From contig CAVSKP010000005.1 in the NCBI GenBank assembly GCA_963728555.1, positions 21,413 to 85,412 on the forward strand: a stretch of 64,000 nucleotides of DNA. The letters run 5' to 3'. Shown one piece after another: positions 34,064 to 57,539 of the stretch (its first letter is position 1; every line of letters begins with the position of its first letter). Source of the stretch: an uncultured Actinomycetota bacterium (GTDB taxonomy: Bacteria > Actinomycetota > Actinomycetes > Propionibacteriales > Nocardioidaceae). A program made the translations under genes and the position numbers. The notes beneath the pieces are model-generated. The model worked only from the letters and a program-made list of their open reading frames with translations. It made no database searches and was not told the DNA's origin.

Positions 34064-35188
34064 GTGGTCGTCATGGCGACCGTTTCGTACGACGTCCGCA
34101 GGTCGCGCTGGTCGTCGCGGCCGACCTTGCTGGTGTCGGCGTGCTCGTCGAGCGCGGACGAGGACCCGCCGACCGCCGCTGGGTCGAGCGCGTCCGCCCC
34201 GTCCGCCACCGACTCCGCGACCGAGGCCGTGACCGAGTCCCAGTCCCCGTCCCCGTCGACGGGCACGCCGTCGCAGGAGTCGAAGCCCCAGCCGGCGCCG
34301 TACCCCGTCTCCCTCCCGGCGTACTTCGAGCGCCGGCCGGACGGCGGCGACCTCCGCCTCGGCACCGTGCGCGAGCGGACACCGGCCTACACGTCGTACG
34401 ACGCGTCGTACCGCAGCGGGCACCTGCGGGTGACCGGGGTGCTCAACGTGCCGACGGGCCGCGGCCCCTTCCCCACCGTCGTGCTCGCCCACGGCTACAT
34501 CGACCCGGCGATCTACGTGTCCGGACAGGGGATGACGCGCGAGCGCGGGTACCTGTCGAGCAACGGGTTCGTCGCCTTCCACGTCGACTACCGCAACCAC
34601 GCCGGCTCCGATGTCGACCCGCTCGCCGACCGACGGCTGCGCCTGGGCTATGCCCTGGACGTCATCAACGCGGTGCAGGCGCTTCGGCGTACGCCGAGGG
34701 TGCCGGTCGACGACGACCGGATCGCGCTCTTCGGCCGGTCGATGGGCGGCGGCGTGGTCTACAAGGCGCTGGAGATCGCGCCCGGACTCGTCGACGCCGC
34801 CTCCGTGTGGGCCGCCGTGAGCTCGCGCGAGGACGAGAACTTCGACCACTTCATCCGGGACGACCCGGGCGACCGGGCGGACCTGGTGAGGTACGTCGAG
34901 CAGGAGTACGGCCTGCCCGGCCAGCGCGGCTCGGCGAAGTTCTGGCGGCAGATCAGCGCCCGGACGTACTTCGACCGGATCACCGAGCCCGTCCAGGTCG
35001 TGCACGGCACCAGCGACTCCACCTGCCCGCCGCCGTGGGCCCGGGCGTCGTACCGCGCCCTGACGGACGCCGGCGTGGACGCGCGGCTGGTGTGGTTCCA
35101 GGGCGAGGAGCACGCCTTCGGCCCACAGTTCTTCGCCGCCATGGCCCGGACGACGCGCTACTTCCACACCGCGCCGCGCCGGCTGTAA
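34064..35188 (+). CDS. Secreted/lipoprotein alpha/beta hydrolase (S9 peptidase-like); signal peptide possibly frameshifted near 34122
   Basis: VSAC lipobox, Ser/Thr linker, HGYIDP, VDYRNH, GRSMGGG, HGTSD, EEHAF. Confidence 0.85.
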   Translation: MVVMATVSYDVRRSRWSSRPTLLVSACSSSADEDPPTAAGSSASAPSATDSATEAVTESQSPSPSTGTPSQESKPQPAPYPVSLPAYFERRPDGGDLRLGTVRERTPAYTSYDASYRSGHLRVTGVLNVPTGRGPFPTVVLAHGYIDPAIYVSGQGMTRERGYLSSNGFVAFHVDYRNHAGSDVDPLADRRLRLGYALDVINAVQALRRTPRVPVDDDRIALFGRSMGGGVVYKALEIAPGLVDAASVWAAVSSREDENFDHFIRDDPGDRADLVRYVEQEYGLPGQRGSAKFWRQISARTYFDRITEPVQVVHGTSDSTCPPPWARASYRALTDAGVDARLVWFQGEEHAFGPQFFAAMARTTRYFHTAPRRL

Positions 35189-35281
35189 CAGCACGTTCGG
35201 TGCACCCCCCGCGCGTTTGAACGTGCTCCAAGACGCATGAACGTGCTGTTACAAGTCAGGCCGCGCGCAGGAAGTGCTCCA
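35184..35281. mobile_element. Miniature inverted-repeat element remnant
   Basis: Perfect 15-bp IR TGTAACAGCACGTTC (35184-35198) / GAACGTGCTGTTACA (35239-35253) with partial copies at 35218 and 35271; lies between two copies of a gene 3' end. Confidence 0.45.
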
Positions 35282-35286
35282 GGTGA

Positions 35287-35349
35287 GGCCCACAGTTCTT
35301 CGCCGCCATGACCCGCACGACGTGCTACTTCCGCGCCGGGCTCGCCTGA
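35287..35349 (+). repeat. Diverged duplicate of the hydrolase 3' end
   Basis: 35287-35338 matches 35120-35171 at 47/52 nt and still reads GPQFFAAMTRTTCYFRAGLA*. Confidence 0.8.
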
Positions 35350-42687: not shown

Positions 42688-43937
42688 TCAGACGGTGGCC
42701 TCGTGCCGGGCTCGGCCGCGGCCGGCTCGGCCGCGACGACGTCCTCGGACTTCATCGACGGGCGGGCGTCGTCGGCGCGACCGAGGCCGGCGTACGCGCG
42801 CCCCATCCGGCTGACGAACTGGTACACGCCGTCCTCCTCGGGGGCCAGCGGTCCCGGGATCGCGTGCGGGCTGGTGAGCCCTCGCTGGACCGACTCGCAG
42901 GCGGCCCAGTCCTGGCGGTTGGTGAGGTCCCAGAAGTCCACGGCGTAGGACGGGTCGAAGCCTTCGCGCTCCGCCACATGGCGCGGGAAGGCCCACGAGC
43001 ACTCGACGAACGTGCGGTCGGCGGCGATCGGCCGCATCGTGTGGGTCATCACGTAGTCGGGGTGCAGGCTGATGAGCAGGTTGGGGAACGCGATGAGGTA
43101 CATCACCGTGCGCATCTCGACCTCGTTGAGACCCTCGATCGCGACACCGCCGCTGCGTCCGTCGAGCGACATGGTGTCGGCGTCCGGGACGAGATCCATC
43201 CAGCCGCCCATCCACTCGCCGACCGGCTCGAGGTTCTCCCCGCTCTGCGGCGGACTGACCCGGCACAGCTCGGGGTGGATGGAGGAGCAGTGGTAACACT
43301 CCTGGTAGTTCTCGGCGATGATCTTCCAGTTCGTCGCGAGCTCGTAGGAGTGAGACGCGACGGTGACCAGGTCCTCGGGCCGGTAGTTGGCGACGATCGC
43401 GTCGAGGTCGCCGGCGTGCTCATCGAACGACCCGGCCTCGTTGCTGGGGTCGACGAAGACCCAGCCGTGCCACTCCACGACGTTGAGCTCGGCCAGCCCG
43501 AACTGCGACTTGTCGAAGTCCTCCAGGTCGCGGAAGCCGCCGGGGGCGTTGCGGAGCGAGCCATCGAGCTTGTAGTTCCAGGCGTGGTACGGGCAGACGA
43601 TCGAGCGCTTCTGGACCGTCACGCCGCAGGGCACGAGCTCATGGCCACGGTGCCGGCAGACGTTCGCGAACGCCCGCAGCACGCCGTCCTCGCCGCGCAC
43701 CAGCAGCACGCCGCCGGCCCCGGTCTCGACGGAGGTCTGGGCACCCAGCTCGGCGAACTTCTCGCCGCGGCCCAGGCACATCCAGCCGGAGAAGATGTTG
43801 GCCTGCTCCCAGTCGTAGACCGCGGGATCGACGTACGCCCGCCGCGGCAGCATCCGCGAGGAGCCGAACGGCGCGTACGCCGCCGCCACGTCGCCCGCCG
43901 GGAGGGGAGCCGTCATGCCACGCAGTTGATTGAACAT
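42688..43937 (-). CDS. Rieske non-heme iron oxygenase, alpha subunit (GbcA/choline monooxygenase/stachydrine demethylase-like); 3' end uncertain
   Basis: NVCRHRG...CPYHAW Rieske motif; NWKIIAENYQECYHCSSIHP iron site; QDWAACE; runs in-frame into vanZ, probable true stop TGA 42688 via a 1-nt slip near 42705. Confidence 0.88.
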
Positions 43938-43947
43938 ACAGTCAATC
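43928..43947. promoter_or_regulatory. TetR (BetI-like) operator 1
   Basis: GATTGAACATACAGTCAATC. Confidence 0.75.
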
Positions 43948-44116
43948 CTAGGTCTCGCGGGTGAGTGTCGTCCAGCGTCCATCATTCCCGATGCACGGTA
44001 CTGACTCCAGAGTCAGTCTCGATCCTCGGCGGGTCTTCGACCGGTCAACGTCGGGCCACCACCAGTATCCTCGGGTCGCCCTGCTTTGAGCGCCTGATCC
44101 GATGACAGGAGCCACC

Positions 44117-45271
44117 GTGGAATTCGCCTTGACCGACGAGCAGCGCAGCATCGTCGAGGTGACCCGCACCTTCGTCGAGCGGGAGCTCTTCCCGCACGAG
44201 GAGGAGGTCGAGCGAACCGGGAAGGCACGCCCCGAGCTGATCGCCCGGATCCGCGCCAAGGCGATCGAAGCCGGGCTGTATGCCGCCAACATGCCCGAGG
44301 AGGTCGGCGGGGCGGGGCTGGACGCGGTGACGCTGGTGCTCTTCGAGAAGGAGCTGGGCAAGGCGAGCTACGCGCTGCACTACACCGGCGTCGCACGCCC
44401 CTCGAACATCCTGATGGCCGGTACGCCGGCGCAGCGCGAGCGGTACCTGCTGCCGTGCGTGCGAGGTGAGCGCACCGACTGCCTCGCCATGACCGAGCCG
44501 GGAGCCGGCTCGGACATGCGGGCCATCCGCACCCGCGCCGTACGAGACGGCGACGGGTGGACCATCCGCGGTACCAAGCACTTCATCAGCCACGCCGACG
44601 AGGCGGACTTCGTGATCCTGCTCGCCCGGACGGGGGCCGACGACGCAGGTCGGCCCGCGATGTCGACGTTCCTCGTCGACCTGGACACCCCGGGGCTGCA
44701 CGTGCACGACGGGTACCGCAACGTGTCACACCGCGGGTACACCAACTCGATCCTGGACTTCGACGACGTCCGCCTGCCCGGCGACGCCCTGCTGGGAGAG
44801 GAGGACAAAGGGCTGGAGCTGGCGGGCGAGTGGCTCGGGTCGACCCGGCTGTCGGTCGCCGCGACCTGCCTCGGGCGCGCGGAGCGAGCCCTCGGCCTGT
44901 CGACGGAGCACGCGGCGCACCGGGAGCAGTTCGGTCAGCCCATCGGCAAGTTCCAGGGGGTCGGCTTCAAGCTCGCCGACATGGCCACCGAGCTGCGGGC
45001 CGCCGAGCTGACGACGCTGTACGCCGCGTGGAAGCGGGACCAGGGCACGGCCGCCGACGCGGACATCGCGATGGCCAAGCTGAAGGCCACCGAGATGCTC
45101 GCCATGGTCGCCGACGAGGCCATCCAGATCCACGGGGGCATGGGCCTGATGGACGAGCTCCCGCTCGAGCGGATCTGGAGGGACGCGCGGATAGAGCGGA
45201 TCTGGGACGGCACGTCGGAGATCCAGAGGCACATCATCTCCCGGTCGCTGCTGCGGCCGCTGGGGGGTTGA
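44117..45271 (+). CDS. Acyl-CoA dehydrogenase (gamma-butyrobetainyl-CoA dehydrogenase-like)
   Basis: AMTEPGAGSD, GTKHFIS, REQFGQPIGKFQG, RIWDGTSEIQRHII; adjacent to caiD; AGGAG RBS before GTG 44117. Confidence 0.88.
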   Translation: MEFALTDEQRSIVEVTRTFVERELFPHEEEVERTGKARPELIARIRAKAIEAGLYAANMPEEVGGAGLDAVTLVLFEKELGKASYALHYTGVARPSNILMAGTPAQRERYLLPCVRGERTDCLAMTEPGAGSDMRAIRTRAVRDGDGWTIRGTKHFISHADEADFVILLARTGADDAGRPAMSTFLVDLDTPGLHVHDGYRNVSHRGYTNSILDFDDVRLPGDALLGEEDKGLELAGEWLGSTRLSVAATCLGRAERALGLSTEHAAHREQFGQPIGKFQGVGFKLADMATELRAAELTTLYAAWKRDQGTAADADIAMAKLKATEMLAMVADEAIQIHGGMGLMDELPLERIWRDARIERIWDGTSEIQRHIISRSLLRPLGG

Positions 45272-45274
45272 ACC

Positions 45275-46066
45275 ATGGAGAACGCCGAGGTGCTCCACCT
45301 CCGCCGCGAGGACGGCGTACTCGAGGTCACCCTCGACCGACCCAAGGCCAACGCCATCGACCTGGCCACCAGCCGTGCGATGGGCCAGGTGTTCGCGGAC
45401 TTCCGTGACGACCCCGAGCTACGGGTCGCCATCGTGCGGACCGCCGGCGACAAGTTCTTCTGCGCCGGCTGGGACCTCAAGGCCGCGGCCGCGGGCGACG
45501 CCGTCGACGGCGACTACGGCGTCGGCGGCTTCGGCGGCCTCCAGGAGCTCCCGGAGCTCAACAAGCCCGTCATCGCGGCCGTCCACGGCCTGGCGATGGG
45601 CGGCGGCTTCGAGCTGGCGCTCTCCTGCGACCTGATCTACGCCTCGGAGAGCACGCAGTTCGGGCTGCCCGAGATCAACGCGGGGACCCTCGCCGACGCC
45701 GCGTCGGTGAAGCTGCCGAAGCGGATGCCCTTCCACGTCGCCATGGACCTCCTCCTCACCGGACGCTGGATGAGCGCCACCGAAGCCGCGCGCTGGGGCC
45801 TGGTCAACGAGGTCCTCCCGAACGACGACGCCGTGCGCGCCCGCGCCTGGGAGACCGCCCGCCTGCTCGCCGCCGGCCCTCCGCTCGTCTTCGCCGCCAT
45901 CAAGGAGGTGACCCGGGTCGCCGCGTCGCTGACGTTCCAGGAGGCCATGGACCTGATCACGAGCAGCCGGCTCCGGACCGTCGCCACCCTGTACACCTCG
46001 GAGGACGAGAAGGAGGGGGCCAGGGCCTTCGCCGAGAAGCGCCCGCCCGTCTGGAAGGGCCGCTGA
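45275..46066 (+). CDS. caiD: Carnitinyl-CoA dehydratase-like crotonase
   Basis: LEVTLDRPKANAID, FRDDPELRVAI, KFFCAGWDLKAAA, FAEKRPPVWKGR closely follow the CaiD sequence as I recall it. Confidence 0.8.
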   Translation: MENAEVLHLRREDGVLEVTLDRPKANAIDLATSRAMGQVFADFRDDPELRVAIVRTAGDKFFCAGWDLKAAAAGDAVDGDYGVGGFGGLQELPELNKPVIAAVHGLAMGGGFELALSCDLIYASESTQFGLPEINAGTLADAASVKLPKRMPFHVAMDLLLTGRWMSATEAARWGLVNEVLPNDDAVRARAWETARLLAAGPPLVFAAIKEVTRVAASLTFQEAMDLITSSRLRTVATLYTSEDEKEGARAFAEKRPPVWKGR

Positions 46067-46132
46067 CGATGGACGGTCGACGTGGAGACGCGTCCTGGAG
46101 CAGCAAGCACAGGCGGAGGCGGCCCGAGCCGC

Positions 46133-47082
46133 CTAGGTGACCTCGTTCGGAGGGTTGGTTCGGGGAGCGCTGGTTGATCCGCCGCGGTCATCGGTCGGTG
46201 CGAAGGCCAGCAGGTCCGAGGTGGGCGGCACCCAGTAGTAGCTGCCGGTGAGCGGAGCGGTGAAGCGGGTGAGTGCGTCCCGCGGCCCGTCCACACCGGC
46301 CATGCTCTCCAACATCGTGTGGAGTGGCTTCTTGCTGCTGGCGAAGCCGACGAACATGGTCCCGTGGTCGCTGACCGTGCCGAAGGCCGTGTTCCGTCGC
46401 AGCACATGGCCGAAGTCGTCCTGGTCGGTCCGGGCCGCGTGGGAGGTATCAGGCTTCGGGGCGAGTTCGATGCTGTCGGTCTTGGTCCGGCCGATCACCT
46501 CCCCCTGGACGTCGTCGTCGAGGGCCCACCACGCCGCCGCATCATGGGCCCACTGCTGCAGGAGCAGCACCGAACCGCCGGCGCCGGGTGACCCCTCGGG
46601 CACCAGGGCGTAGGCGGGAGCGCTGGCGAGCGTCGGGTTCTCGGTGCCATCCTCGAAGCCGGTGAGGTCGCGGTCTCGGTGGTAGGTCGAGCCCCGCACC
46701 TCGCTGACCAAAGCAGCGAACGGCGCCAGCTTGCGTACCGCGTCGAGTGTCGCGTCGAAGACGACGTCGTACGAGGCCGCCGCGAACCAGAGCGCGAGGT
46801 CATGCTGGGTCGCGGGCATGGCGAAGCCGTCCGAACCGACCACGGCAGCGTCGAAGCCGGTCAGCCCGGTAGGCAGCGTCCCGGGCGACACGCGCGCCCA
46901 GAGCTCGGGGCGGACGCCCGCGACGAGGTTGGTGGCGCCCATGGTGGTCTCGCGCTCGGCCAGGTCGGCGAGCACTCTGACGGCGGCGACCGGATCGGCG
47001 TCGATGAGCAGATCCAGTTCGATGTACGCGTGCGAGGAGGTTCCAACAGCGAAGATGCCAGCCTGGGGGAGGACCTCGACAC
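46133..47082 (-). CDS. Dyp-type peroxidase, frameshifted in a homopolymer at 47065-47069
   Basis: RDLTGFEDGTENP, IGRTK, SHAART, LRRN; adding one C to the C5 run joins GTG 47082 (MSRSSP) to QAGIFAVGTSSHAYIELDL. Confidence 0.88.
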
Positions 47083-47154
47083 GTTCCTACCCGATCAGGC
47101 AGCCGCCTGTCCGGTCGAGAAGACCGGGGGTCTCAGATGTGGGAACCCGGGCGG

Positions 47155-47625
47155 TCAGTCGAAACACTCAGGATTGCTGACGGGGTCCGGGTTGACGGTG
47201 TTGCACACCGATTCGACTCGGCTGTCCAGTGAACTGCCGACAGCGAAGACGACGACCACCAAGGCAACGACGAGACCCGACCAGATCGTCCCGATCAGTC
47301 CAGTGACGAATCCTGCGGTTGCCATGCCGCGACCACCGAGTCGCCCGTGCGATTGGTCGATCTCGCGGGTGGCCCTTCGAGCCGTGATCATGGCGGGAAT
47401 ACCGGTGAACAGGCCGAAGAACAACAGAGAAAGGATGCCAAGCACCAGCGCGGTTGTTGCCCCGCCCGAGTTCGGCGGGATGGGGGTGACTCCGCTGGGG
47501 TATATGGCGGGCGGGTAGGCGGCTGGCGCCCTGTGCTCGGTCCATTCGGAGCCGTTCCAGTAGCGCTGCTGCGACGGGTCCTGCGGATCCGGGAACCAAC
47601 CCGCGCTCGGAGTGCTGGCGCTCAT
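47155..47625 (-). CDS. DUF2510 + DUF4190 membrane protein
   Basis: AGWFPDPQDPSQQRYWNGSEWT; ALVLGILSLL...GRGMATAGFVTG. Confidence 0.85.
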   Translation of the reverse strand: MSASTPSAGWFPDPQDPSQQRYWNGSEWTEHRAPAAYPPAIYPSGVTPIPPNSGGATTALVLGILSLLFFGLFTGIPAMITARRATREIDQSHGRLGGRGMATAGFVTGLIGTIWSGLVVALVVVVFAVGSSLDSRVESVCNTVNPDPVSNPECFD

Positions 47626-47844
47626 GCGTTGCCCTTCACTGCTGACTCCCCATGGGTGTGCTGGTCCGACATGCGATCACGTCCCTGCTCGAGTGCGCCG
47701 GTCATGGTGCGGGCGCCTGCGGCATTAGACCTCGACCGCCTCGGCGCTGTTCGAGGAACGGCAGAAAACCGGCCGAACGGTGATCGACACCGTTGCGTAG
47801 TACCTGGCTACCGATTCAGGTGAGGCCACAGCCCGGGTGAGCGT

Positions 47845-49068
47845 TCATCGGCGATGAGTGCGCGGATCCGGGTCAGCGCCCAGCGAGCGCATGGCTCGCT
47901 GTCCCATGTGGAGCAGGAAGTGGAGGCTAGCCGCCCAGTTGTCCATGGTGGTATCGATGTCGCAGCCGGCCGCCTCGGCACGCTCAGCCGGCCAGTCCTC
48001 AGAGACGGGGAAGTCGGGGCAGAGCAGGGCGACGTCGTCCACGACGAAGCACAGCATTTGGAGCGAGCCCGAAGCAGCGGCAGCGAAGCGCACGTCCGCC
48101 TCGTCCCCTCGCCATCCGAAGTCACGCAGCCCCGCCAGGTACGCGTCCGTCGCCGAGCGCTCGTGCTCGACTCCGTCGGCCGGGTCCACCGAGTCGACGC
48201 ACACGTCAAGTGCGACGTGGTGGCCGAGGTCGGCGCCGATCGGCGCCGTGCCGAAGAAGCCCCAGTCGATGACGACGGTGCGCTCACCTTTCGCAGTGCG
48301 CTCACGGAACAGGTTGCTCGCCTTGGCGTCGTGGTGTGCGACCGTGGCCGGCAGTGTGGCGAGGCGCACGCACATCTGCTCGCAAGAACTGACCACGTCG
48401 ACGAGGGCTTGGCGGCTCGACACCGGCACCCGGTCTCGGAGGAGCGGGTGGGCCCAGCAGTCGGCGTGTGCCAGGGCGTGGCCGCCGCTGAGTCCGAGGA
48501 AGGTCGAGGCCCAGCCGCTCAACCAGTCCCGAGCGGTCCACGAGAGCGCCAGGACTTCGTCCACCATCGAGGTCCCCTGGGCGGCGAAGCCGCCGAGGTC
48601 GTAGGCCATCTCGGCGAGCTCGCCGACGGACCTCGCCGGACGGTCGGTGCCCTCGTCGAGCTCCTCCAGCCACAGCCAGGCGGTCGTGTCGTCCACCTCC
48701 TCGGTGGCCCAACAGCCGACAGGACGCATGGGGTGCTCGAACCTGTCGAGCAGGCCGCAGCGACGTGCCAACACCTCGCGCTTCCAGTAGTTCCAGTCGG
48801 ACGGCTCGCGGATGTAGCCGTCGATGTCGAGCGGAGTCCCACTCAGGTCGGGCAGCATGACGACCTTGAGGATGGTGCTCCACTGCTTCTCGCGAGCTCC
48901 GCCGACGGTGGCCGTGCCCGCGACGCGATGGATGCCGGCAGTGCCCGGGTTGTACGCCGGGACGTCGAGCCATTCGCTGGTCCATGTCGTGGGCTGCGCG
49001 GCGGGATCCCCGAGGATCCGCCGGACGACCGGTGCTAGCCCCTCGGCCGTCAACAACGGAGGCTCCAT
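47845..49068 (-). CDS. Aminoglycoside-phosphotransferase / choline-kinase-fold protein
   Basis: TILKV, WKREV, HHDAKASNLF catalytic loop, IDWG. Confidence 0.75.
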   Translation of the reverse strand: MEPPLLTAEGLAPVVRRILGDPAAQPTTWTSEWLDVPAYNPGTAGIHRVAGTATVGGAREKQWSTILKVVMLPDLSGTPLDIDGYIREPSDWNYWKREVLARRCGLLDRFEHPMRPVGCWATEEVDDTTAWLWLEELDEGTDRPARSVGELAEMAYDLGGFAAQGTSMVDEVLALSWTARDWLSGWASTFLGLSGGHALAHADCWAHPLLRDRVPVSSRQALVDVVSSCEQMCVRLATLPATVAHHDAKASNLFRERTAKGERTVVIDWGFFGTAPIGADLGHHVALDVCVDSVDPADGVEHERSATDAYLAGLRDFGWRGDEADVRFAAAASGSLQMLCFVVDDVALLCPDFPVSEDWPAERAEAAGCDIDTTMDNWAASLHFLLHMGQRAMRSLGADPDPRTHRR

Positions 49069-49154
49069 GTGTCCCCCTCCATACGCGGACCGGGCCCGTT
49101 CCGGACTTTATCCGCAGGTCTGGATCCGTTGATGGGCCCCTGGCTACCGGGGAG

Positions 49155-49814
49155 TCACCCCGCCAGTAAGGCGTGCTCGGCGGGGGACAGGAACCCTCGG
49201 GCGACCGCGGCGGCTTGGAGGTGGGCGGCGCGGCGTCCCGGCTCGGGGTCGGCAGTGGCCAGGTTGGGACGGAACGCGATGCTGCGGATGTCGTCGACGC
49301 CGGCCCAGTGCAACCAGTCCTCGAAGTACGGCTGCTGGAAGTCGTTGCCGAATCCCGGGCCACGGTCGGGGCCGTAGACCGCGCCGGTGTAGATGACGGC
49401 GACCCGCTTGTTCTCCAGCAGGCCCGTGTAGCCCGCTGCGGGGTCGAAGCTGAAGATCATGCCGGGCTGGCTGATGACGTCGATGAGCTGCTTGAGGATG
49501 TAGGGCACCGACGCGTTCCACATCGGCACCGTGAAGAGGTAGTAGTCGGCGGAGTCGAACCGCTTGAAGGTCTCGTACGCGCGGCGCCATGCGGCGGCCT
49601 CGTCGCCCTCGGGGTCGGCGCCGGCGAAGACCGCCATCTTGGCGGCCGCCGCGGGCGGGCCGAACTCGGGCAACGTGCCGTCCCAGAGGTCCCAGTGCTC
49701 GACCGTGACCTCGGGGTGGATCGCGCGTAGTTCATCGAGGAACGTGGCCGCGATGGCGAGGGTCTCGGAACGTTCGCCGCGGGGCGAGGCGGAGATGTGC
49801 AACAGGGTGGTCAT
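49155..49814 (-). CDS. azoR: FMN-dependent NADH-azoreductase
   Basis: LHISASPRGERSET, TVPMWNASVPYILKQLID, FSFDPAAGYTGL. Confidence 0.9.
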   Translation of the reverse strand: MTTLLHISASPRGERSETLAIAATFLDELRAIHPEVTVEHWDLWDGTLPEFGPPAAAAKMAVFAGADPEGDEAAAWRRAYETFKRFDSADYYLFTVPMWNASVPYILKQLIDVISQPGMIFSFDPAAGYTGLLENKRVAVIYTGAVYGPDRGPGFGNDFQQPYFEDWLHWAGVDDIRSIAFRPNLATADPEPGRRAAHLQAAAVARGFLSPAEHALLAG

Positions 49815-49836
49815 CGTAGTTCCTTCTCGAGCGAGT

Positions 49837-49882
49837 TATGTGCTTACGCACATAGTTATAGCAAAGTGTGTGCGCACGCACA
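49837..49882. promoter_or_regulatory. Tandem MarR operators
   Basis: TATGTGC-TTAC-GCACATA (49837-49854) and TGTGC-GCAC-GCACA (49869-49882), centres 30 bp apart. Confidence 0.7.
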
Positions 49883-49902
49883 AGATCTGGTAGGCTTCGA
49901 GG

Positions 49903-50346
49903 GTGGCAACAGAGCTCACCGAGACGTGGGGCGCGCTGCTGAAGGTGCACGCCGCGCTGGTCCCGCGCCTGGACCGCGAGCTCCAGGACGCCCACGGTCT
50001 GCCCTTGACGTGGTACGACGTGCTGCTCGAGCTCGACGGGGCCCCCCATCGGCGGCTCACCATGGGACAGCTCGGCTCCGTCGCCTCGGTGAGCCGCACC
50101 CGCGTCAGCCGGGTCGTTGACGACCTGGTCCGGGCGGGCCTGGTGACTCGAGAGCCGAACCCGCACGACGGTCGATCGGCTTTCGCAGCACTGACCCCGG
50201 CAGGTCGGACGGCATTGCGCAAGTCGGCGCCGACCTACCTCGCCGCCGTCCACCGTGAGTTCGCCGACCACCTGACACCGCACGAGAGCGAGGTCCTGGC
50301 GGGAGCTCTTCGCAAGGTGCTGGCCGCGAGCGAGCCCAGGTCGTGA
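49903..50346 (+). CDS. MarR family regulator
   Basis: LTWYDVLLEL, LTMGQL, SRTRVSRVVDDL, DGRSAFAALT. Confidence 0.9.
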   Translation: MATELTETWGALLKVHAALVPRLDRELQDAHGLPLTWYDVLLELDGAPHRRLTMGQLGSVASVSRTRVSRVVDDLVRAGLVTREPNPHDGRSAFAALTPAGRTALRKSAPTYLAAVHREFADHLTPHESEVLAGALRKVLAASEPRS

Positions 50347-50357
50347 CCCGCGCCCCG

Positions 50358-50457
50358 GGCCGGCCTACGTCTCGCCGGCGAACGAGCCGATCGACTCGTG
50401 CTGACCCGATCGCTTGCCGAGCCAGCGGTACAGCAGGAAGCCCAGCGCGACGGCGAG
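50358..50457. repeat. Direct repeat, left copy (duplicate of the permease 3' end)
   Basis: 50365-50457 is identical to 51752-51844 over 93 bp; extends to 100 bp with one mismatch. Confidence 0.95.
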
Positions 50458-50505
50458 ATGCCGGCGAATGCGGGTGCACCTACTTCCGCAGAACTGGCAA
50501 TGCGG

Positions 50506-51210
50506 CTAGGCGCTCACCCTGGGCCGGCTGGCGGGGTGAGCCACGTCGGCGAACAGCGGGTGCAGCCCGAACCAGTCGGCGAAGGAGCGGGTGAGCGCCC
50601 GCTGACCCTCCAGCTGGACCGCGTGGCTCTTCACGGCCGACGCGAGCGGGACGTCCCCCATCCACACCGCAGTGAGCGTCTTCGCGTCGCTGGTGACCGT
50701 CACGTCGACTCCGAACCCGGGATCGGTCAGGCACAGGTCCTTCTCGGGAAGCACCAACCAGAAGTAGCGCAGCTTTTCGGGAGCTCCCGCGAAGCGGAAG
50801 TGGATGACAGTGCGACCCGGCGGCAAGGCGTCCGTCTTGACGGTCGTGCGAACCCACCACATGAGCAGGCCGGTGTCTGGTGACTCCTCGAAGATGGGGC
50901 GGCGCAGCCAGCGCTCGCTCCAGATGCCGATCTGGGCGAGGACCGGCCCGAGTTCTTGTCCCGCGGAAGTCAGGTGGTACTCGCTCCCTCGTGCGTACGT
51001 CAGCGCTCGCCGCTCGATGATTCCCGCACGTTCGAGCTCGCGGAGGCGTTTGCTCAACAGCGAAGAGGACATCAGCGGTACACCGCGCTGGATGTCGTTG
51101 AAACGACGGCTCCCGGTTAGCGCCAGTTCACGAAGGACCAGTGGGGTCCAGCGCTCGGTGATCACTTCGGAGGCTTGGGCGATGGGACAAAACTGGCCAT
51201 AACCGGGCAT
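50506..51210 (-). CDS. HxlR-family winged-helix regulator with C-terminal SCP2-like domain
   Basis: YGQFCPIAQASEVITERWTPLVLREL, RRFNDIQRGVPLMSSSLLSKRLRELE, DLCLTDPG. Confidence 0.88.
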   Translation of the reverse strand: MPGYGQFCPIAQASEVITERWTPLVLRELALTGSRRFNDIQRGVPLMSSSLLSKRLRELERAGIIERRALTYARGSEYHLTSAGQELGPVLAQIGIWSERWLRRPIFEESPDTGLLMWWVRTTVKTDALPPGRTVIHFRFAGAPEKLRYFWLVLPEKDLCLTDPGFGVDVTVTSDAKTLTAVWMGDVPLASAVKSHAVQLEGQRALTRSFADWFGLHPLFADVAHPASRPRVSA

Positions 51211-51242
51211 GTGCCCAATCTCCTCGTGCCGTTCACCACCGG

Positions 51243-51263
51243 CAACTGCAGATTCTGCAGTTG
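51243..51263. promoter_or_regulatory. HxlR-type operator
   Basis: Perfect CAACTGCAG-ATT-CTGCAGTTG inverted repeat between divergent genes. Confidence 0.7.
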
Positions 51264-51336
51264 ATCCGGGACGCGGTCAGCGGTGCCATCGAAACAGGCA
51301 ACGGCACCCGGTCGGGCCAGACGAAAGGAAGAGCTC

Positions 51337-51582
51337 ATGTACATCCTCACGATCCACACAATCTCGGACCCGCAAGCATTCTGGAGCGGACAGCTCAACC
51401 TGCCGAAGGGCACCGAGCTGCCCATCGTGGTTCCCAGCGAGGACGGCAAGCGCGGCGTCTGCCTCTTCAAGTCCGGCTCGGTCGAGACGGTGCGAAGTGT
51501 CGTCGACGGCGCGACCAAAGCAGTCAGCCGCAACGAGTTCTACGCAATCAACGAAAGCGGCGCGCTCGGGCTGCCTGCCTAG
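51337..51582 (+). CDS. Small hypothetical protein (81 aa, possibly ferredoxin-like alpha/beta)
   Basis: GAAAGGA RBS; MYILTIHTISDPQAFW...GVCLFKSGSVETVRSVVD. Confidence 0.7.
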   Translation: MYILTIHTISDPQAFWSGQLNLPKGTELPIVVPSEDGKRGVCLFKSGSVETVRSVVDGATKAVSRNEFYAINESGALGLPA

Positions 51583-51744
51583 GGAGTCGGCCACAGCTCG
51601 TTGGATTTCCGCCGACCTCACCGCGCGCACGCCACCGCTTCAGACCGCGTGCACGCCGACGATCACGAGCCTGGGGCCGGGCGTCACCTTCCTCCGCCCG
51701 GTCTCGGCTTCTACCACCTGACCAGCAGACCGACACCGCTTCCT

Positions 51745-51844
51745 GGCCGGGCTACGTCTCGCCGGCGAACGAGCCGATCGACTCGTGCTGACCCGATCGC
51801 TTGCCGAGCCAGCGGTACAGCAGGAAGCCCAGCGCGACGGCGAG
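51745..51844. repeat. Direct repeat, right copy (functional 3' end of the permease gene)
   Basis: Matches 50358-50457. Confidence 0.95.
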
Positions 51845-52627
51845 CATGGCGGCCACCAGCATCAGCGTGGCGAGCGCGTTGAGTGCCGGGGTGGGTGCCG
51901 CGCGGGCGGTGTTGTAGATCTTCACCGAGGTCGGCTCGGTGGACGCGTCGCCGGAGAGGTAGCGGACGATGACGAAGTCGTCGATGACGTCGGCGAACAC
52001 GAGTACGGCGCTCGCGACGATGGCGGGCACCAGCATCGGCAGGATCACGCGGCGTTGGGCCGCGAGCGGTGAGGCGCCGAGGTCCATCGCTGCCTCCTCG
52101 AGCTGCGACCCGATCGTGGCGAGCCGGGCTCGGACGAGGATCGCGGGATAGGACAGCTGGAAGGTGACCAGGCCGACCACCTGCGACGTCGTGCCGAGCG
52201 TGAACGGCAGGGCCAGGTTGGTGACCACGAGGAGCAACGCCACCGCGAGCAGCGTCTCGGGCAGCACGAACGAGAGCAGCAGCATCGAGTTGGCGGTGTT
52301 GGAGAGCTTGCCGCGCCAGCGGTGCAGACCGATCGCGAGCGCGACGCCGAGAGGGACGCAGACCAGGGTGGTGAGCACCCCGAGTCGAAGGGTCTGGATC
52401 AGGGCCGTCTGCAGCGTGTCGTCGTGCCAGACCGAGCGTTCCGGGTCGCCGTAGTACCACCGCAGCGAGAAGCCTTGCCAGCTGGTCCGCGACCGACCGT
52501 CGTTGAAGGAGAACGCGGCGGCGATCAGGACTGGGAGGAGCGACCAGAGCAGGTAGCCGATGGTGACGGCGGCGAGCAGGCGCGGCTTGCGCCACGGGTC
52601 ACGCCACCACGCGGTGATCGAGCTCAT
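51752..52627 (-). CDS. potC: Polyamine-type ABC permease (PotC-like)
   Basis: FSFND, FSLRWY, LEEAAMDLGASP EAA loop, SVKIY. Confidence 0.85.
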   Translation of the reverse strand: MSSITAWWRDPWRKPRLLAAVTIGYLLWSLLPVLIAAAFSFNDGRSRTSWQGFSLRWYYGDPERSVWHDDTLQTALIQTLRLGVLTTLVCVPLGVALAIGLHRWRGKLSNTANSMLLLSFVLPETLLAVALLLVVTNLALPFTLGTTSQVVGLVTFQLSYPAILVRARLATIGSQLEEAAMDLGASPLAAQRRVILPMLVPAIVASAVLVFADVIDDFVIVRYLSGDASTEPTSVKIYNTARAAPTPALNALATLMLVAAMLAVALGFLLYRWLGKRSGQHESIGSFAGET

Positions 52628-54913: not shown

Positions 54914-54981
54914 GCGGTGAGATCCTGGACCTCGGCCGGAGATCCGGCCGGCACCCTTGTGGCCCTCCCCGAGCGTCCCTA

Positions 54982-55001
54982 AACTGAACGCTCAGTCAAA
55001 C
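54982..55001. promoter_or_regulatory. TetR operator 3
   Basis: AACTGAACGCTCAGTCAAAC, just upstream of the GAGGAG RBS of the aminotransferase. Confidence 0.72.
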
Positions 55002-55013
55002 GAGGAGAGCCCC

Positions 55014-56409
55014 GTGACCACCTCCGTCACCACTGACGAACCCATTGGCGAAACCATCGACACCCTGCTCGAGTCCGAGTCCGAGGCGTTCGTGCGGCGC
55101 CAGCCACGCAGCACCGCCATGATCGCCGAGGCCGGCGCCGTTCTCGCCGGCGGCGCTACTTCCAACTGGCAGATCGCCCAGCCGCAGGCCGTGTGGATGA
55201 GCCACGGCCAGGGGCCCCACGTCTGGGACGTGGACGGCAACGAGTACGTCGACATGCACGGCGGGTACGGCGCCGCCATCGCCGGCCACGCCCACCCCGC
55301 CATCGTGGAGGCCGTGACCCGTCAGGTCTCACGCGGTACGCACTTCGCCCAGCCCACCGAGGACGCCATCTGGGTGGCGACCGAGCTCGCCCGCCGCTTC
55401 GGCCTGCCCCAGTGGCGGTTCGCCAACTCGGGCACCGAGGCCACCATGGACGCGATCCACCTGATGCGGGCGCTGAAGGGCCGCGACCTCATCATCAAGG
55501 TGGAGGGTTGCTACCACGGCCACCACGACTCGGTGCAGGTCTCGGTGCTGCCCGAGCCCGAGGAGGTCGGCCCGGCCGACGCGCCGTACCGCGTCCCCGG
55601 CAACACCGGCATCCCGCAGGCGATCATGGACCTGATCGTCGTGGTGCCCTTCAACGACCTGGGCGCCGTCGAGCGCGCCCTGGCCGAGCACCGCGGACAG
55701 ATCGCGGGGATGATCCTCGAGCCGATCATGATGAACGCCGGCATCATCCCGCCGGACGACGGCTACCTCGCCGGTCTCAAGGAGCTCCTCCACGCCGAGG
55801 ACTGCTTCCTCACCTTCGACGAGGTCAAGACCGGCTTCACGACCGGACCCGCGGGGGCTACCGGGAGGTACGGCGTCACGCCGGACATCGTCTGCCTCGC
55901 CAAGGCCCTCGGTGGCGGAATCTCCGTCGCCGCGCTGGGTGGTACCGACGAAGTCATGTCCGCCATCGCCGACGGGAGGTACGAGCAGGTCGGCACGTTC
56001 AACGGCAACCCGCTGGCGATGGCCGCCGCACGCGCGAACCTCAGCCAGGTCCTCAACGAGGAGGGGTACGCCCGCCTCGATGCCCTGGCCGCGCGTGCCA
56101 GGGAGGGCTTCGAGCGGCACATCGCCGACAACGGGCTCGCCGTGGCACGTGGTCAGCGTCGGCGCCAAGGGATGCGTGGCGTTCACGGGCGAGCCCGTCC
56201 GCAACTACCGCGACTTCCTCGAGGTCGACGACCGCTGGGGTCACCTGCATTGGCTGATGCAGCACAATGGCGGGGTGTTCCTGCCGCCGTGGGGCAAGGT
56301 CGAGCAGTGGCTGCTGTCCGTGCAGCACACCGAGGACGACGTCGACCTTCTCGTCTCCAACTTCGGTCGGCTGGCCGAGGTGGCCGGTCAGACCTCTGGC
56401 GCCGCCTGA
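55014..56409 (+). CDS. Class III PLP aminotransferase (HemL/GSA-AM-like paralog), frameshift near 56136-56141
   Basis: WDVDGNEYVD, SGTEATM, GCYHGH, ILEP, FDEVKTGF, LAKALGGG, GTFNGNP; C-terminus continues in the 55912-56409 frame. Confidence 0.88.
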
Positions 56410-57539
56410 TGGCGGGCGGCGCCCTGCGCCTCACCTCGCTGACGAAGTCGTTCGGCGACGTCGTCGCCGTCGACGGCATCGACCTCGACCTGCCGGCCGG
56501 CGAGTTCTGCTCGCTGCTCGGTGCGTCGGGGTGCGGCAAGACCACGACCCTGCGGATGATCGCGGGATTCGAGAGGCCGGACTCCGGCCAGATCCTGCTC
56601 GACGGCAAGGACATGGCGCAGGAGCCGCCGCACCGGCGCCCGGTCAACACCGTGTTCCAGAGCTACGCCCTGTTCCCGCTGATGACGGTCCGGGAGAACG
56701 TCGCCTTCGGGCTGCGCTACCAGAACGTCGACAAGGCCACCATCGACCGCCGGGTCTCGGAGGCCCTGGACGTCGCCCGCATCGGCGAGCTCGCCAAGCG
56801 CCGCCCCGCCCAGCTGTCCGGTGGTCAGCAGCAGCGCGTCGCCCTGGCCCGTGCCCTGGTGCTCAACCCGAAGGTGCTGTTGCTCGACGAGCCGCTCGGG
56901 GCCCTGGACGCCCAGCTCCGCAAGTACCTCCAGCTCCAGCTGCGCCAGCTCCAGCGCGACCTCGGCATCACCTTCGTCTACGTCACCCACGACCAGGAGG
57001 AGGCCCTGACGATGAGTGACCGCATCGCGGTCATCGCCGAGGGCAAGGTCGAGCAGGTCGGCGCACCGGAGGAGATCTACTCACGTCCCGCGACGGCGTA
57101 CGTCGCCGGGTTCCTCGGGTCCGCCAACATCTTCGACGCCGACGTCACCGACGTCTCGTCGAGCACCGCCACCTGCACGTCCTTGGGCCGCACCATCGCC
57201 GCCGAGGTCACCGGCGACTGCCCGCGCGGCGAGGCCGCGATCGTGGTCCGCCCCGAGAGGATCGCCGTCGACGCCGAGTCCGCGCCCGGCCCGACCGGCC
57301 ACAACCGCCTGACCGGAACGGTCCTCGACGTCGTGTACCTCGGCGCCTCGACCCAGGTGCGCGTGGACGTCGGGGACGACCACGTCTTGCTCGTGCAGGT
57401 CGCCAACCAGGCCGGCCCCCGCTCTTTCACGGCCACCCCCGGCGAGCGCGTCGCCTGCTGGTTCTCTCCCACTGCCGTCCAGGTACTGCGCCGGAGCGAG
57501 GCGAAGCTGCCGGACCCGGTCGAGGTCGAGATCGGGTAG
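56409..57539 (+). CDS. potA: Polyamine-type ABC ATPase (PotA-like)
   Basis: GASGCGKTT, VFQSYALFP, LSGGQQQR, LLDEP, YVTHDQEEA, TOBE C-terminus. Confidence 0.9.
   Translation: MAGGALRLTSLTKSFGDVVAVDGIDLDLPAGEFCSLLGASGCGKTTTLRMIAGFERPDSGQILLDGKDMAQEPPHRRPVNTVFQSYALFPLMTVRENVAFGLRYQNVDKATIDRRVSEALDVARIGELAKRRPAQLSGGQQQRVALARALVLNPKVLLLDEPLGALDAQLRKYLQLQLRQLQRDLGITFVYVTHDQEEALTMSDRIAVIAEGKVEQVGAPEEIYSRPATAYVAGFLGSANIFDADVTDVSSSTATCTSLGRTIAAEVTGDCPRGEAAIVVRPERIAVDAESAPGPTGHNRLTGTVLDVVYLGASTQVRVDVGDDHVLLVQVANQAGPRSFTATPGERVACWFSPTAVQVLRRSEAKLPDPVEVEIG

Follow-up and report, generated by a model that had tools for sequence, protein, structure and literature searches.

Duplication of a potC 3' end around a two-gene regulator cassette in a soil actinobacterium, and its probable origin by recombinase-free insertion

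In a stretch of 64,000 nucleotides (nt) from an uncultured member of the Nocardioidaceae (GenBank assembly GCA_963728555.1, contig CAVSKP010000005.1, positions 21,413 to 85,412; hereafter the window, with positions counted from its first letter), the 3' end of the potC transporter permease gene occurs twice, and the two copies bracket a cassette that carries an HxlR-family regulator gene, a candidate operator and a divergent gene for an 81-residue protein. The cassette is an insertion/deletion polymorphism among near-identical soil strains, since one metagenomic read joins the flank of the neighbouring MarR gene directly to an intact potC. The insertion amounts to 1,387 bp in total, i.e., the 1,294-bp cassette and one additional 93-bp copy of the potC end. 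Among the possible origins we lean towards a one-off insertion at a variable hot spot that did not involve a recombinase, a process referred to as homology-facilitated illegitimate recombination.

A perfect repeat of the potC end surrounds two genes

Direct comparison of positions 50365-50457 and 51752-51844 gave 93 matching nt with 0 mismatches, in agreement with an earlier reading made from the sequence only, which had described a perfect duplication of the potC 3' end on either side of the cassette. Exactly two copies of the 93-nt sequence are present in the window, and copies were found in none of 100 shuffled windows. The right copy (51752-51844, minus strand) is the functional 3' end of potC, comprising its last 30 codons and the stop codon. 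It completes an intact gene (51752-52627, minus strand), consistent with the attL/attR-like geometry and restored gene end noted previously. The potC product is a 291-residue ABC permease of the Pfam family BPD_transp_1, encoded by the last gene of a potD-potB-potC operon; it aligns end to end with 15 homologs (79-93% identity) and has the C-terminal ending common to 14 of the 15. Its identity to full-length homologs with this ending is 85-92%, and an exact-protein look-up returned no match. The left copy (50365-50457, minus strand) repeats the final 30 potC codons and the stop as an orphan, has no gene body upstream and lies 18 bp from the stop codon of a MarR-family regulator gene (49903-50346, plus strand; Pfam MarR_2, 67 bits).

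Between the repeats, a gene for a 234-residue winged-helix regulator (50506-51210, minus strand) and the gene for the 81-residue protein (51337-51582, plus strand, start at 51337) diverge from a region that contains a perfect 9-3-9 palindrome (CAACTGCAG-ATT-CTGCAGTTG, 51243-51263). The Pfam HxlR score of the regulator (75.7 bits, cutoff 20.8), together with our reading of the sequence, confirms this content as it had been proposed. The two genes are separated from the repeat copies by spacers. The left spacer (48 bp, 50458-50505) was found at this locus only and has no homology to any relative of the cassette, and homologs of the right spacer (159 bp, 51583-51741) are lacking from the window and from all fetched loci; further copies of either were likewise not detected in the window or fetched loci. 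The GC content is host-like across 51583-51751 (70.4%) and is 65.7% for the cassette versus 70.4% for the window, which places the cassette at about the 3rd percentile of windows of the same size.

Gapped alignment extended the similarity past both edges of the repeat. At the outer edge, the 10 bp adjoining the left copy (50355-50364, CCGGGCCGGC) match those adjoining the right copy (51742-51751, CCTGGCCGGG) at 8 of 10 positions. At the inner edge, the start of the left spacer, ATGCCGGC, resembles the potC sequence cATGGCGGC immediately beyond the right copy over 8 bp (7 of 8 matches and a 1-nt gap). We infer that the junction 50457/50458 is an illegitimate join, and every scenario considered below requires one at this position.

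Soil metagenomes contain both junctions and an empty site

Both the occupied and the empty arrangement were recovered in Logan unitigs of low depth (2-6x) from soil samples, some of which are possibly the source of the assembly. One record (X13, 181 nt) matches 50362-50542 with 0 mismatches, extending from the diagnostic base C50364 through the entire left repeat and 85 nt into the cassette. Two others (X14, X15) also cross the junction 50457/50458, a fourth (X6) leads from 44 nt of right-spacer sequence through the repeat to the beginning of the potC body, and two more (X1, X5) contain the entry from the MarR side into the repeat. The topology of the X1 unitig, with two repeat entries and one exit, was considered as evidence for a mixed population and dropped because the coverage is too patchy.

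These records bear on whether the duplication is an assembly artefact, the outcome that the sequence-only reading had named as its refutation. The repeat would then stem from mis-joined reads of two strains, and a frameshift in a nearby aminotransferase gene does hint at some sequence errors. However, unitigs built from the raw reads of several soil samples contain 50457/50458, and each repeat copy is spanned together with its own flanks, the full left copy from 50364 into the cassette with no mismatch by one unitig and the spacer, repeat and potC body by another. An artefact thus appears extremely improbable.

An empty site, one of the checks that had been proposed, was found in a further record (X7, 151 nt). 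Its first 112 nt correspond to 50346-50457 and are followed by CATGGCGGCCACCAGC..., which corresponds to the window from 51845 onward. The order is therefore MarR stop, 18 bp, repeat and potC body, with no cassette, and in this allele the MarR gene converges directly on potC. The 10 bp after the potC stop (CCTGGCCGGC) are identical at 9 of 10 positions to the end of the cassette-side spacer, i.e., to the 10 bp adjoining the right copy. When aligned to the stretch starting at 51745, the X7 allele has a T at the equivalent of 51744, as in the right copy, and a C at the equivalent of 51751, as in the left copy. Because one crossover between the two copies in the window cannot yield the MarR flank together with this T and this C, X7 represents a separately segregating allele; it could be either ancestral or derived from an occupied allele with T at 50357. 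The event, previously described as recent, is by this record recent or still segregating. Direct repeats are a substrate for RecA-mediated deletion, and with two 93-bp repeats 1.3 kb apart a precise loss of the cassette via RecA is thus possible, which would restore the MarR-potC arrangement. A circle or tandem junction (51844 back to 50458) was not seen in 12 metagenome runs, represented by unitigs at a depth of only 2-6x.

The cassette lacks the features of a dedicated mobile element

No recombinase, integrase or transposase is encoded in the two-gene cassette, as the earlier reading had stated, and none was found among the approximately 36 window genes scanned against Pfam (four small open reading frames (ORFs) were unscanned); the remaining larger called genes outside the Pfam scan are syntenic metabolic genes. 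Terminal inverted repeats are absent from the cassette ends, with a score equal to the shuffle mean, and no attC-like motif is present at the cassette end. Comparison of the cassette with plasmid and phage collections gave no match. The length of the duplication, 93-103 bp, differs from the short target duplication expected of a DDE transposon, insertion sequence or miniature inverted-repeat transposable element. Across about 26 homologous loci per side the unit has no common boundary or end motif, and direct repeats of 21 bp or more do not flank the regulator/81-aa pair at any of 49 homologous loci. Together with homology that ends at stop codons, relatives that carry other cargo without a second potC end and the lack of a circle junction at very low depth, these results argue against the satellite or other dedicated element that the sequence-only reading had entertained, and they lend no support to a mobile element or satellite of a new kind.

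Integrative elements that replace the 3' end of their target gene include e14 and phage 21, both in icd of Escherichia coli. As in these, a duplicated target 3' end flanks the insert, the gene is intact and precise loss is possible in principle. Decayed elements that retain attL and attR have been described as cis-mobilizable elements (CIMEs; PMC5704250). The cassette could accordingly be a decayed or non-autonomous site-specific element that targeted the potC 3' end and lost its integrase, the repeats being attL and attR and excision remaining possible in trans. Such an origin would fit the geometry, which restores the gene end as 3'-end elements and CIMEs do (PMC5704250), and the coexistence of occupied and empty alleles. 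In contrast to e14, phage 21 and CIMEs, the cassette is accompanied by neither an integrase, in itself or among the window genes scanned, nor signs of decayed element genes. The target is not reused in relatives, which have other cargo at the site and no second potC end within 8 kb, the homologs of the cassette are never repeat-flanked at the 49 loci, and its cargo is solely a regulator unit of chromosomal type. A circle junction was not seen in the 12 runs of 2-6x unitigs. We regard this origin as unlikely.

A similarly low probability attaches to the more dynamic reading that the cassette, without needing its own recombinase, is actively cycling as a 1,387-bp circle with one 93-bp 'address tag', re-entering matching potC ends by RecA or by a trans-acting enzyme that makes target duplications of 50-100 bp. 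If this were true, a second duplication at 35.1-35.3 kb of the window (described below) would be another product of the same enzyme, and the occupied/empty polymorphism would reflect ongoing switching rather than a single event.

The cassette lies at the edge of a variable interval

The interval from a Rieske oxygenase gene to potC (44020-51751, 7.7 kb) is specific to this genome when compared with six relatives (L081-L086; 88-92% protein identity for PotC and 83-87% nt identity over the shared regions). Homology of the window to these relatives covers only about 42700-44020 and 51752 onward, and the aminotransferase-potA, potD-potB-potC and Rieske oxygenase genes are shared by all. Within the interval the window has genes for an ACAD, a CaiD-like protein, a DyP peroxidase, a membrane protein, an APH-type kinase, an FMN reductase and the MarR regulator, followed by the cassette. 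The six relatives show five distinct arrangements between potC and the Rieske gene, namely nothing (L085), a hemerythrin gene (L083), DUF6529 and another gene (L081 and L082), SulP and Ppx (L086) and a short ORF (L084). Neither the MarR gene nor the cassette is present at this locus in any of the six, and no mobility gene is visible in the interval in their fetched flanks. A second copy of their own potC end was not found in these flanks (within 8 kb) by a test that was positive in the window, and recurrent use of the potC end as an insertion target was not seen in the six relatives. The comparison identifies the potC-Rieske interval as a chromosomal hot spot of gene content, with the cassette at its potC edge.

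Proposed origin of the insertion

We propose that strains of one species differed in their arrangement at this hot spot, with one form in which the MarR gene adjoined potC, as in X7, and one in which the cassette and its spacer did so. DNA of one arrangement would have entered a cell carrying the other, the donor most likely being a conspecific with the cassette and the 159-bp spacer behind potC. One end of the incoming DNA would have been anchored by homologous recombination in potC, and the other would have been joined illegitimately 93 bp inside the recipient potC, at the short similarity patch (50457/50458). By an equivalent route, the fragment would have been end-joined into a circle, and one RecA crossover would have brought it into the chromosome; integration of a circle by homologous recombination, which the sequence-only reading had listed among its explanations, is thereby retained as one possible route within the recombinase-free account. 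The former gene end of the recipient would remain as the orphan copy beside MarR, and the insertion would have survived because the incoming copy keeps the permease intact. The structure, the two junctions, the empty allele, the lack of mobility features and the variable hot spot are observed, whereas how the donor was arranged and in which order the steps took place are inferred.

Recombination of this kind explains the similarity patch at the inner edge, the lack of a recombinase and the intact permease, and a 93-bp repeat that is exact in its core but continues as imperfect similarity beyond either edge also speaks for it. The agreement at 9 of 10 positions just behind the potC stop would arise because both arrangements, which have potC and about 10 bp in common, share ancestry up to the boundary of the hot spot. 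Homology-facilitated illegitimate recombination is known from natural transformation of Acinetobacter, Pseudomonas stutzeri and Streptococcus pneumoniae. As proposed, the present case resembles it in having one homology-anchored end, another end joined at a short GC-rich patch, no dedicated recombinase and a one-off character, and differs in being deduced from a polymorphism that occurs naturally in a soil actinobacterium and in its join, which lies inside the anchoring gene and leaves a 93-bp orphan end.

Several points weigh against this account. The proposed donor arrangement, with the cassette behind potC and no left copy, was not found among the loci and metagenomes searched, and two copies without a single difference call for a donor of almost the same sequence, or else for a crossover right at the repeat border. 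The empty allele could represent the ancestral state or a later loss of the cassette, so that the change may have run in either direction. A second copy of the cassette or a matching integrase may be present elsewhere in the genome, as the search for a recombinase covered the 64-kb window, and the metagenomic support consists of unitigs of 2-6x, some of them perhaps from the assembly's own source. Moreover, the similarity at the edges could reflect de novo duplication of a longer segment (103-112 bp), in which errors arose close to the junctions.

The last point corresponds to the main rival, which follows the same idea less parsimoniously and in which the cassette came from another locus or genome and its capture copied about 103 bp of the target twice, so that both repeats are derived from the recipient. 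This could have occurred by replicative template switching resembling microhomology-mediated break-induced replication (MMBIR), or by fill-in of a staggered break and end-joining by the actinobacterial Ku/LigD. Such a long target duplication would yield perfectly identical copies without a near-identical donor, and it is consistent with the imperfect similarity at both repeat edges, with the 9/10 match of the outer 10 bp to the empty allele and with the existence of a second, older 3'-end duplication (~56 bp) around a small insert in the same window. On the other hand, it needs about three changes clustered at the edges of the repeat and none in the 93-bp core, there is no known source copy of the cassette with these spacers and, to our knowledge, no target duplication this long has been described in bacteria. 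We therefore regard a de novo duplication as possible, if doubtful.

An intrachromosomal origin was also considered, in which the cassette was ancestrally located behind potC, the cassette and the potC end were duplicated in tandem, most of the first copy was deleted and a later exchange between the repeats produced the empty allele. Tandem duplications and microhomology deletions are common, and the similarity patch at the inner junction would be in keeping with such an origin. Nevertheless, two illegitimate events are needed, as well as a third step for the empty allele, and the 9/10 match at the deletion junction would be due to chance. In addition, the X7 allele is not the product of a single crossover in the window allele and none of the six relatives has the cassette at this locus, which makes an intrachromosomal origin very unlikely. 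Recombinase-free insertion from a conspecific donor is thus the origin to which we incline.

The cargo is a regulator-target unit present in many actinobacterial contexts

The cargo of the cassette is a stop-to-stop unit of 1,078 bp that consists of the regulator gene, a conserved operator and the 81-aa gene. A search for the cassette in other genomes, also among the checks proposed earlier, located the regulator gene paired with the 81-aa gene at no fewer than 30 actinobacterial loci, with other neighbours in nearly all of them and free of the flanking repeats mentioned above. The unit is found in Kribbella with 87-91% nt identity and in metagenome-assembled Thermoleophilia and Acidimicrobiia with 73-78%, whereas the nearest metagenomic copies reach 91-93% and sit in other genomic contexts. 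In all comparisons the homology does not go beyond the two stop codons (window 50505-51583). The loci that carry the unit, which include L001-L039 and L087-L089, range from 73 to 93% nt identity across Actinomycetes, Thermoleophilia and Acidimicrobiia, and the neighbouring genes differ in almost all of them. This identity across classes, combined with different neighbours almost everywhere, suggests that the regulator-target pair is frequently exchanged horizontally. The cargo is a roaming unit and not a mobile element.

At nine loci (L003, L004, L006, L013, L016, L030, L034, L036 and L039) a conserved GC-rich hairpin (e.g., CGAAGGCCCTCC...GAGGGCCTTCG) is present some 30-70 nt 3' of the stop codon of the 81-aa gene, and the window lacks it. 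The hairpin is probably an intrinsic terminator that moves with the unit in one lineage.

The match of the regulator to PF01638 (HxlR) is above the gathering score and spans residues 16-103, and its sequence relatives in the PDB include YybR, YodB, HxlR and QsrR. An additional C-terminal domain of approximately 130 residues follows. The label HxlR-SCP2, given to the protein in the sequence-only reading, holds for its HxlR part; the SCP2 part corresponds to a sub-threshold match (12.7 bits, cutoff 21.3, E=0.16), and the C-terminal half also matches Alkyl_sulf_C below threshold (18.9 bits, cutoff 27, E=0.0019). The regulator gene has the lowest GC content at third codon positions among the 48 called genes of the window, and an exact-protein look-up of its product gave no match. 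The 9-3-9 palindrome is likely the operator of this regulator, a prediction in line with the motif TCAACTGCA(G/A)AATCTGCAGTTG or a close variant in most of 28 homologous intergenic regions. The arrangement is reminiscent of HxlR/YodB/QsrR-type (DUF24) regulators, with an N-terminal domain above the Pfam threshold, a divergent gene and a palindromic candidate operator. In contrast to these, the regulator has the extra C-terminal domain of about 130 residues, and its partner is an uncharacterised 81-aa protein and not a known detoxification enzyme.

The partner protein belongs to an unnamed family whose members, in an alignment of 27 sequences, are always 81 residues long, have a mean column identity of 82% and share invariant residues that include His7, Trp16 and Cys42. 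It gave no match to Pfam, and its 285 homolog clusters carry, where they are named at all, only the name 'hypothetical'. A confident AlphaFold2 model built from the alignment (predicted local distance difference test score 89.9) has a beta-alpha-beta-beta-alpha-beta topology, i.e., the protein is predicted to adopt a ferredoxin-like alpha+beta fold. A fold search of the model against the PDB gave no significant match. Among the listed PDB matches the best TM-score (0.61) was obtained for SCO4226 of Streptomyces coelicolor (PDB 4oi6), an 81-residue nickel-binding ferredoxin-like protein that has the same size and overall alpha+beta fold, the match being non-significant (E=0.05, 14% identity). 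Given that the regulator belongs to the HxlR family, a role of the 81-aa protein in sensing or buffering of electrophiles, redox signals or metals would be a reasonable guess.

Other features of the window

A second 3'-end duplication is located at 35120-35346, where a gene for an S9-type hydrolase (34064-35188) has some 56 bp of its end repeated, with roughly 49 of 56 positions identical. The copies enclose an insert of about 110 bp with a perfect 14-bp inverted repeat (GTAACAGCACGTTC ... GAACGTGCTGTTAC), of which no additional copies were found in the window, and the gene now terminates inside the insert. This duplication is diverged and older than that of the potC end.

Upstream of the MarR gene (49903-50346), a palindrome (ATGTGC-TTAC-GCACAT, 49840-49856) lies between this gene and a divergent FMN-reductase gene (49155-49814, minus strand) and is likely a MarR operator. 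The 860-residue 'aminotransferase-potA' ORF (54957-57539) is a frameshift fusion with the shift at 56134-56138: the aminotransferase of L085 matches frame 3 as far as 56138 and frame 1 over 56134-56406, after which the ABC ATPase is read in frame 3, beginning at 56409. The frameshift may be due to a sequencing indel, or else the aminotransferase gene is a true pseudogene.

Implications

The cassette does not overturn current understanding of how bacterial chromosomes acquire genes. It offers a natural example in which a small unit of regulator and target was gained without a mobility gene, leaving the gene in which it landed undamaged, and both alleles persist in soil. The case illustrates the gain of cargo by hot spots between conserved genes. 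The cargo itself is an uncharacterised and widely exchanged trio, whose members are the HxlR regulator with its additional domain, the conserved operator and the 81-aa protein, in which a His and a Cys are invariant.

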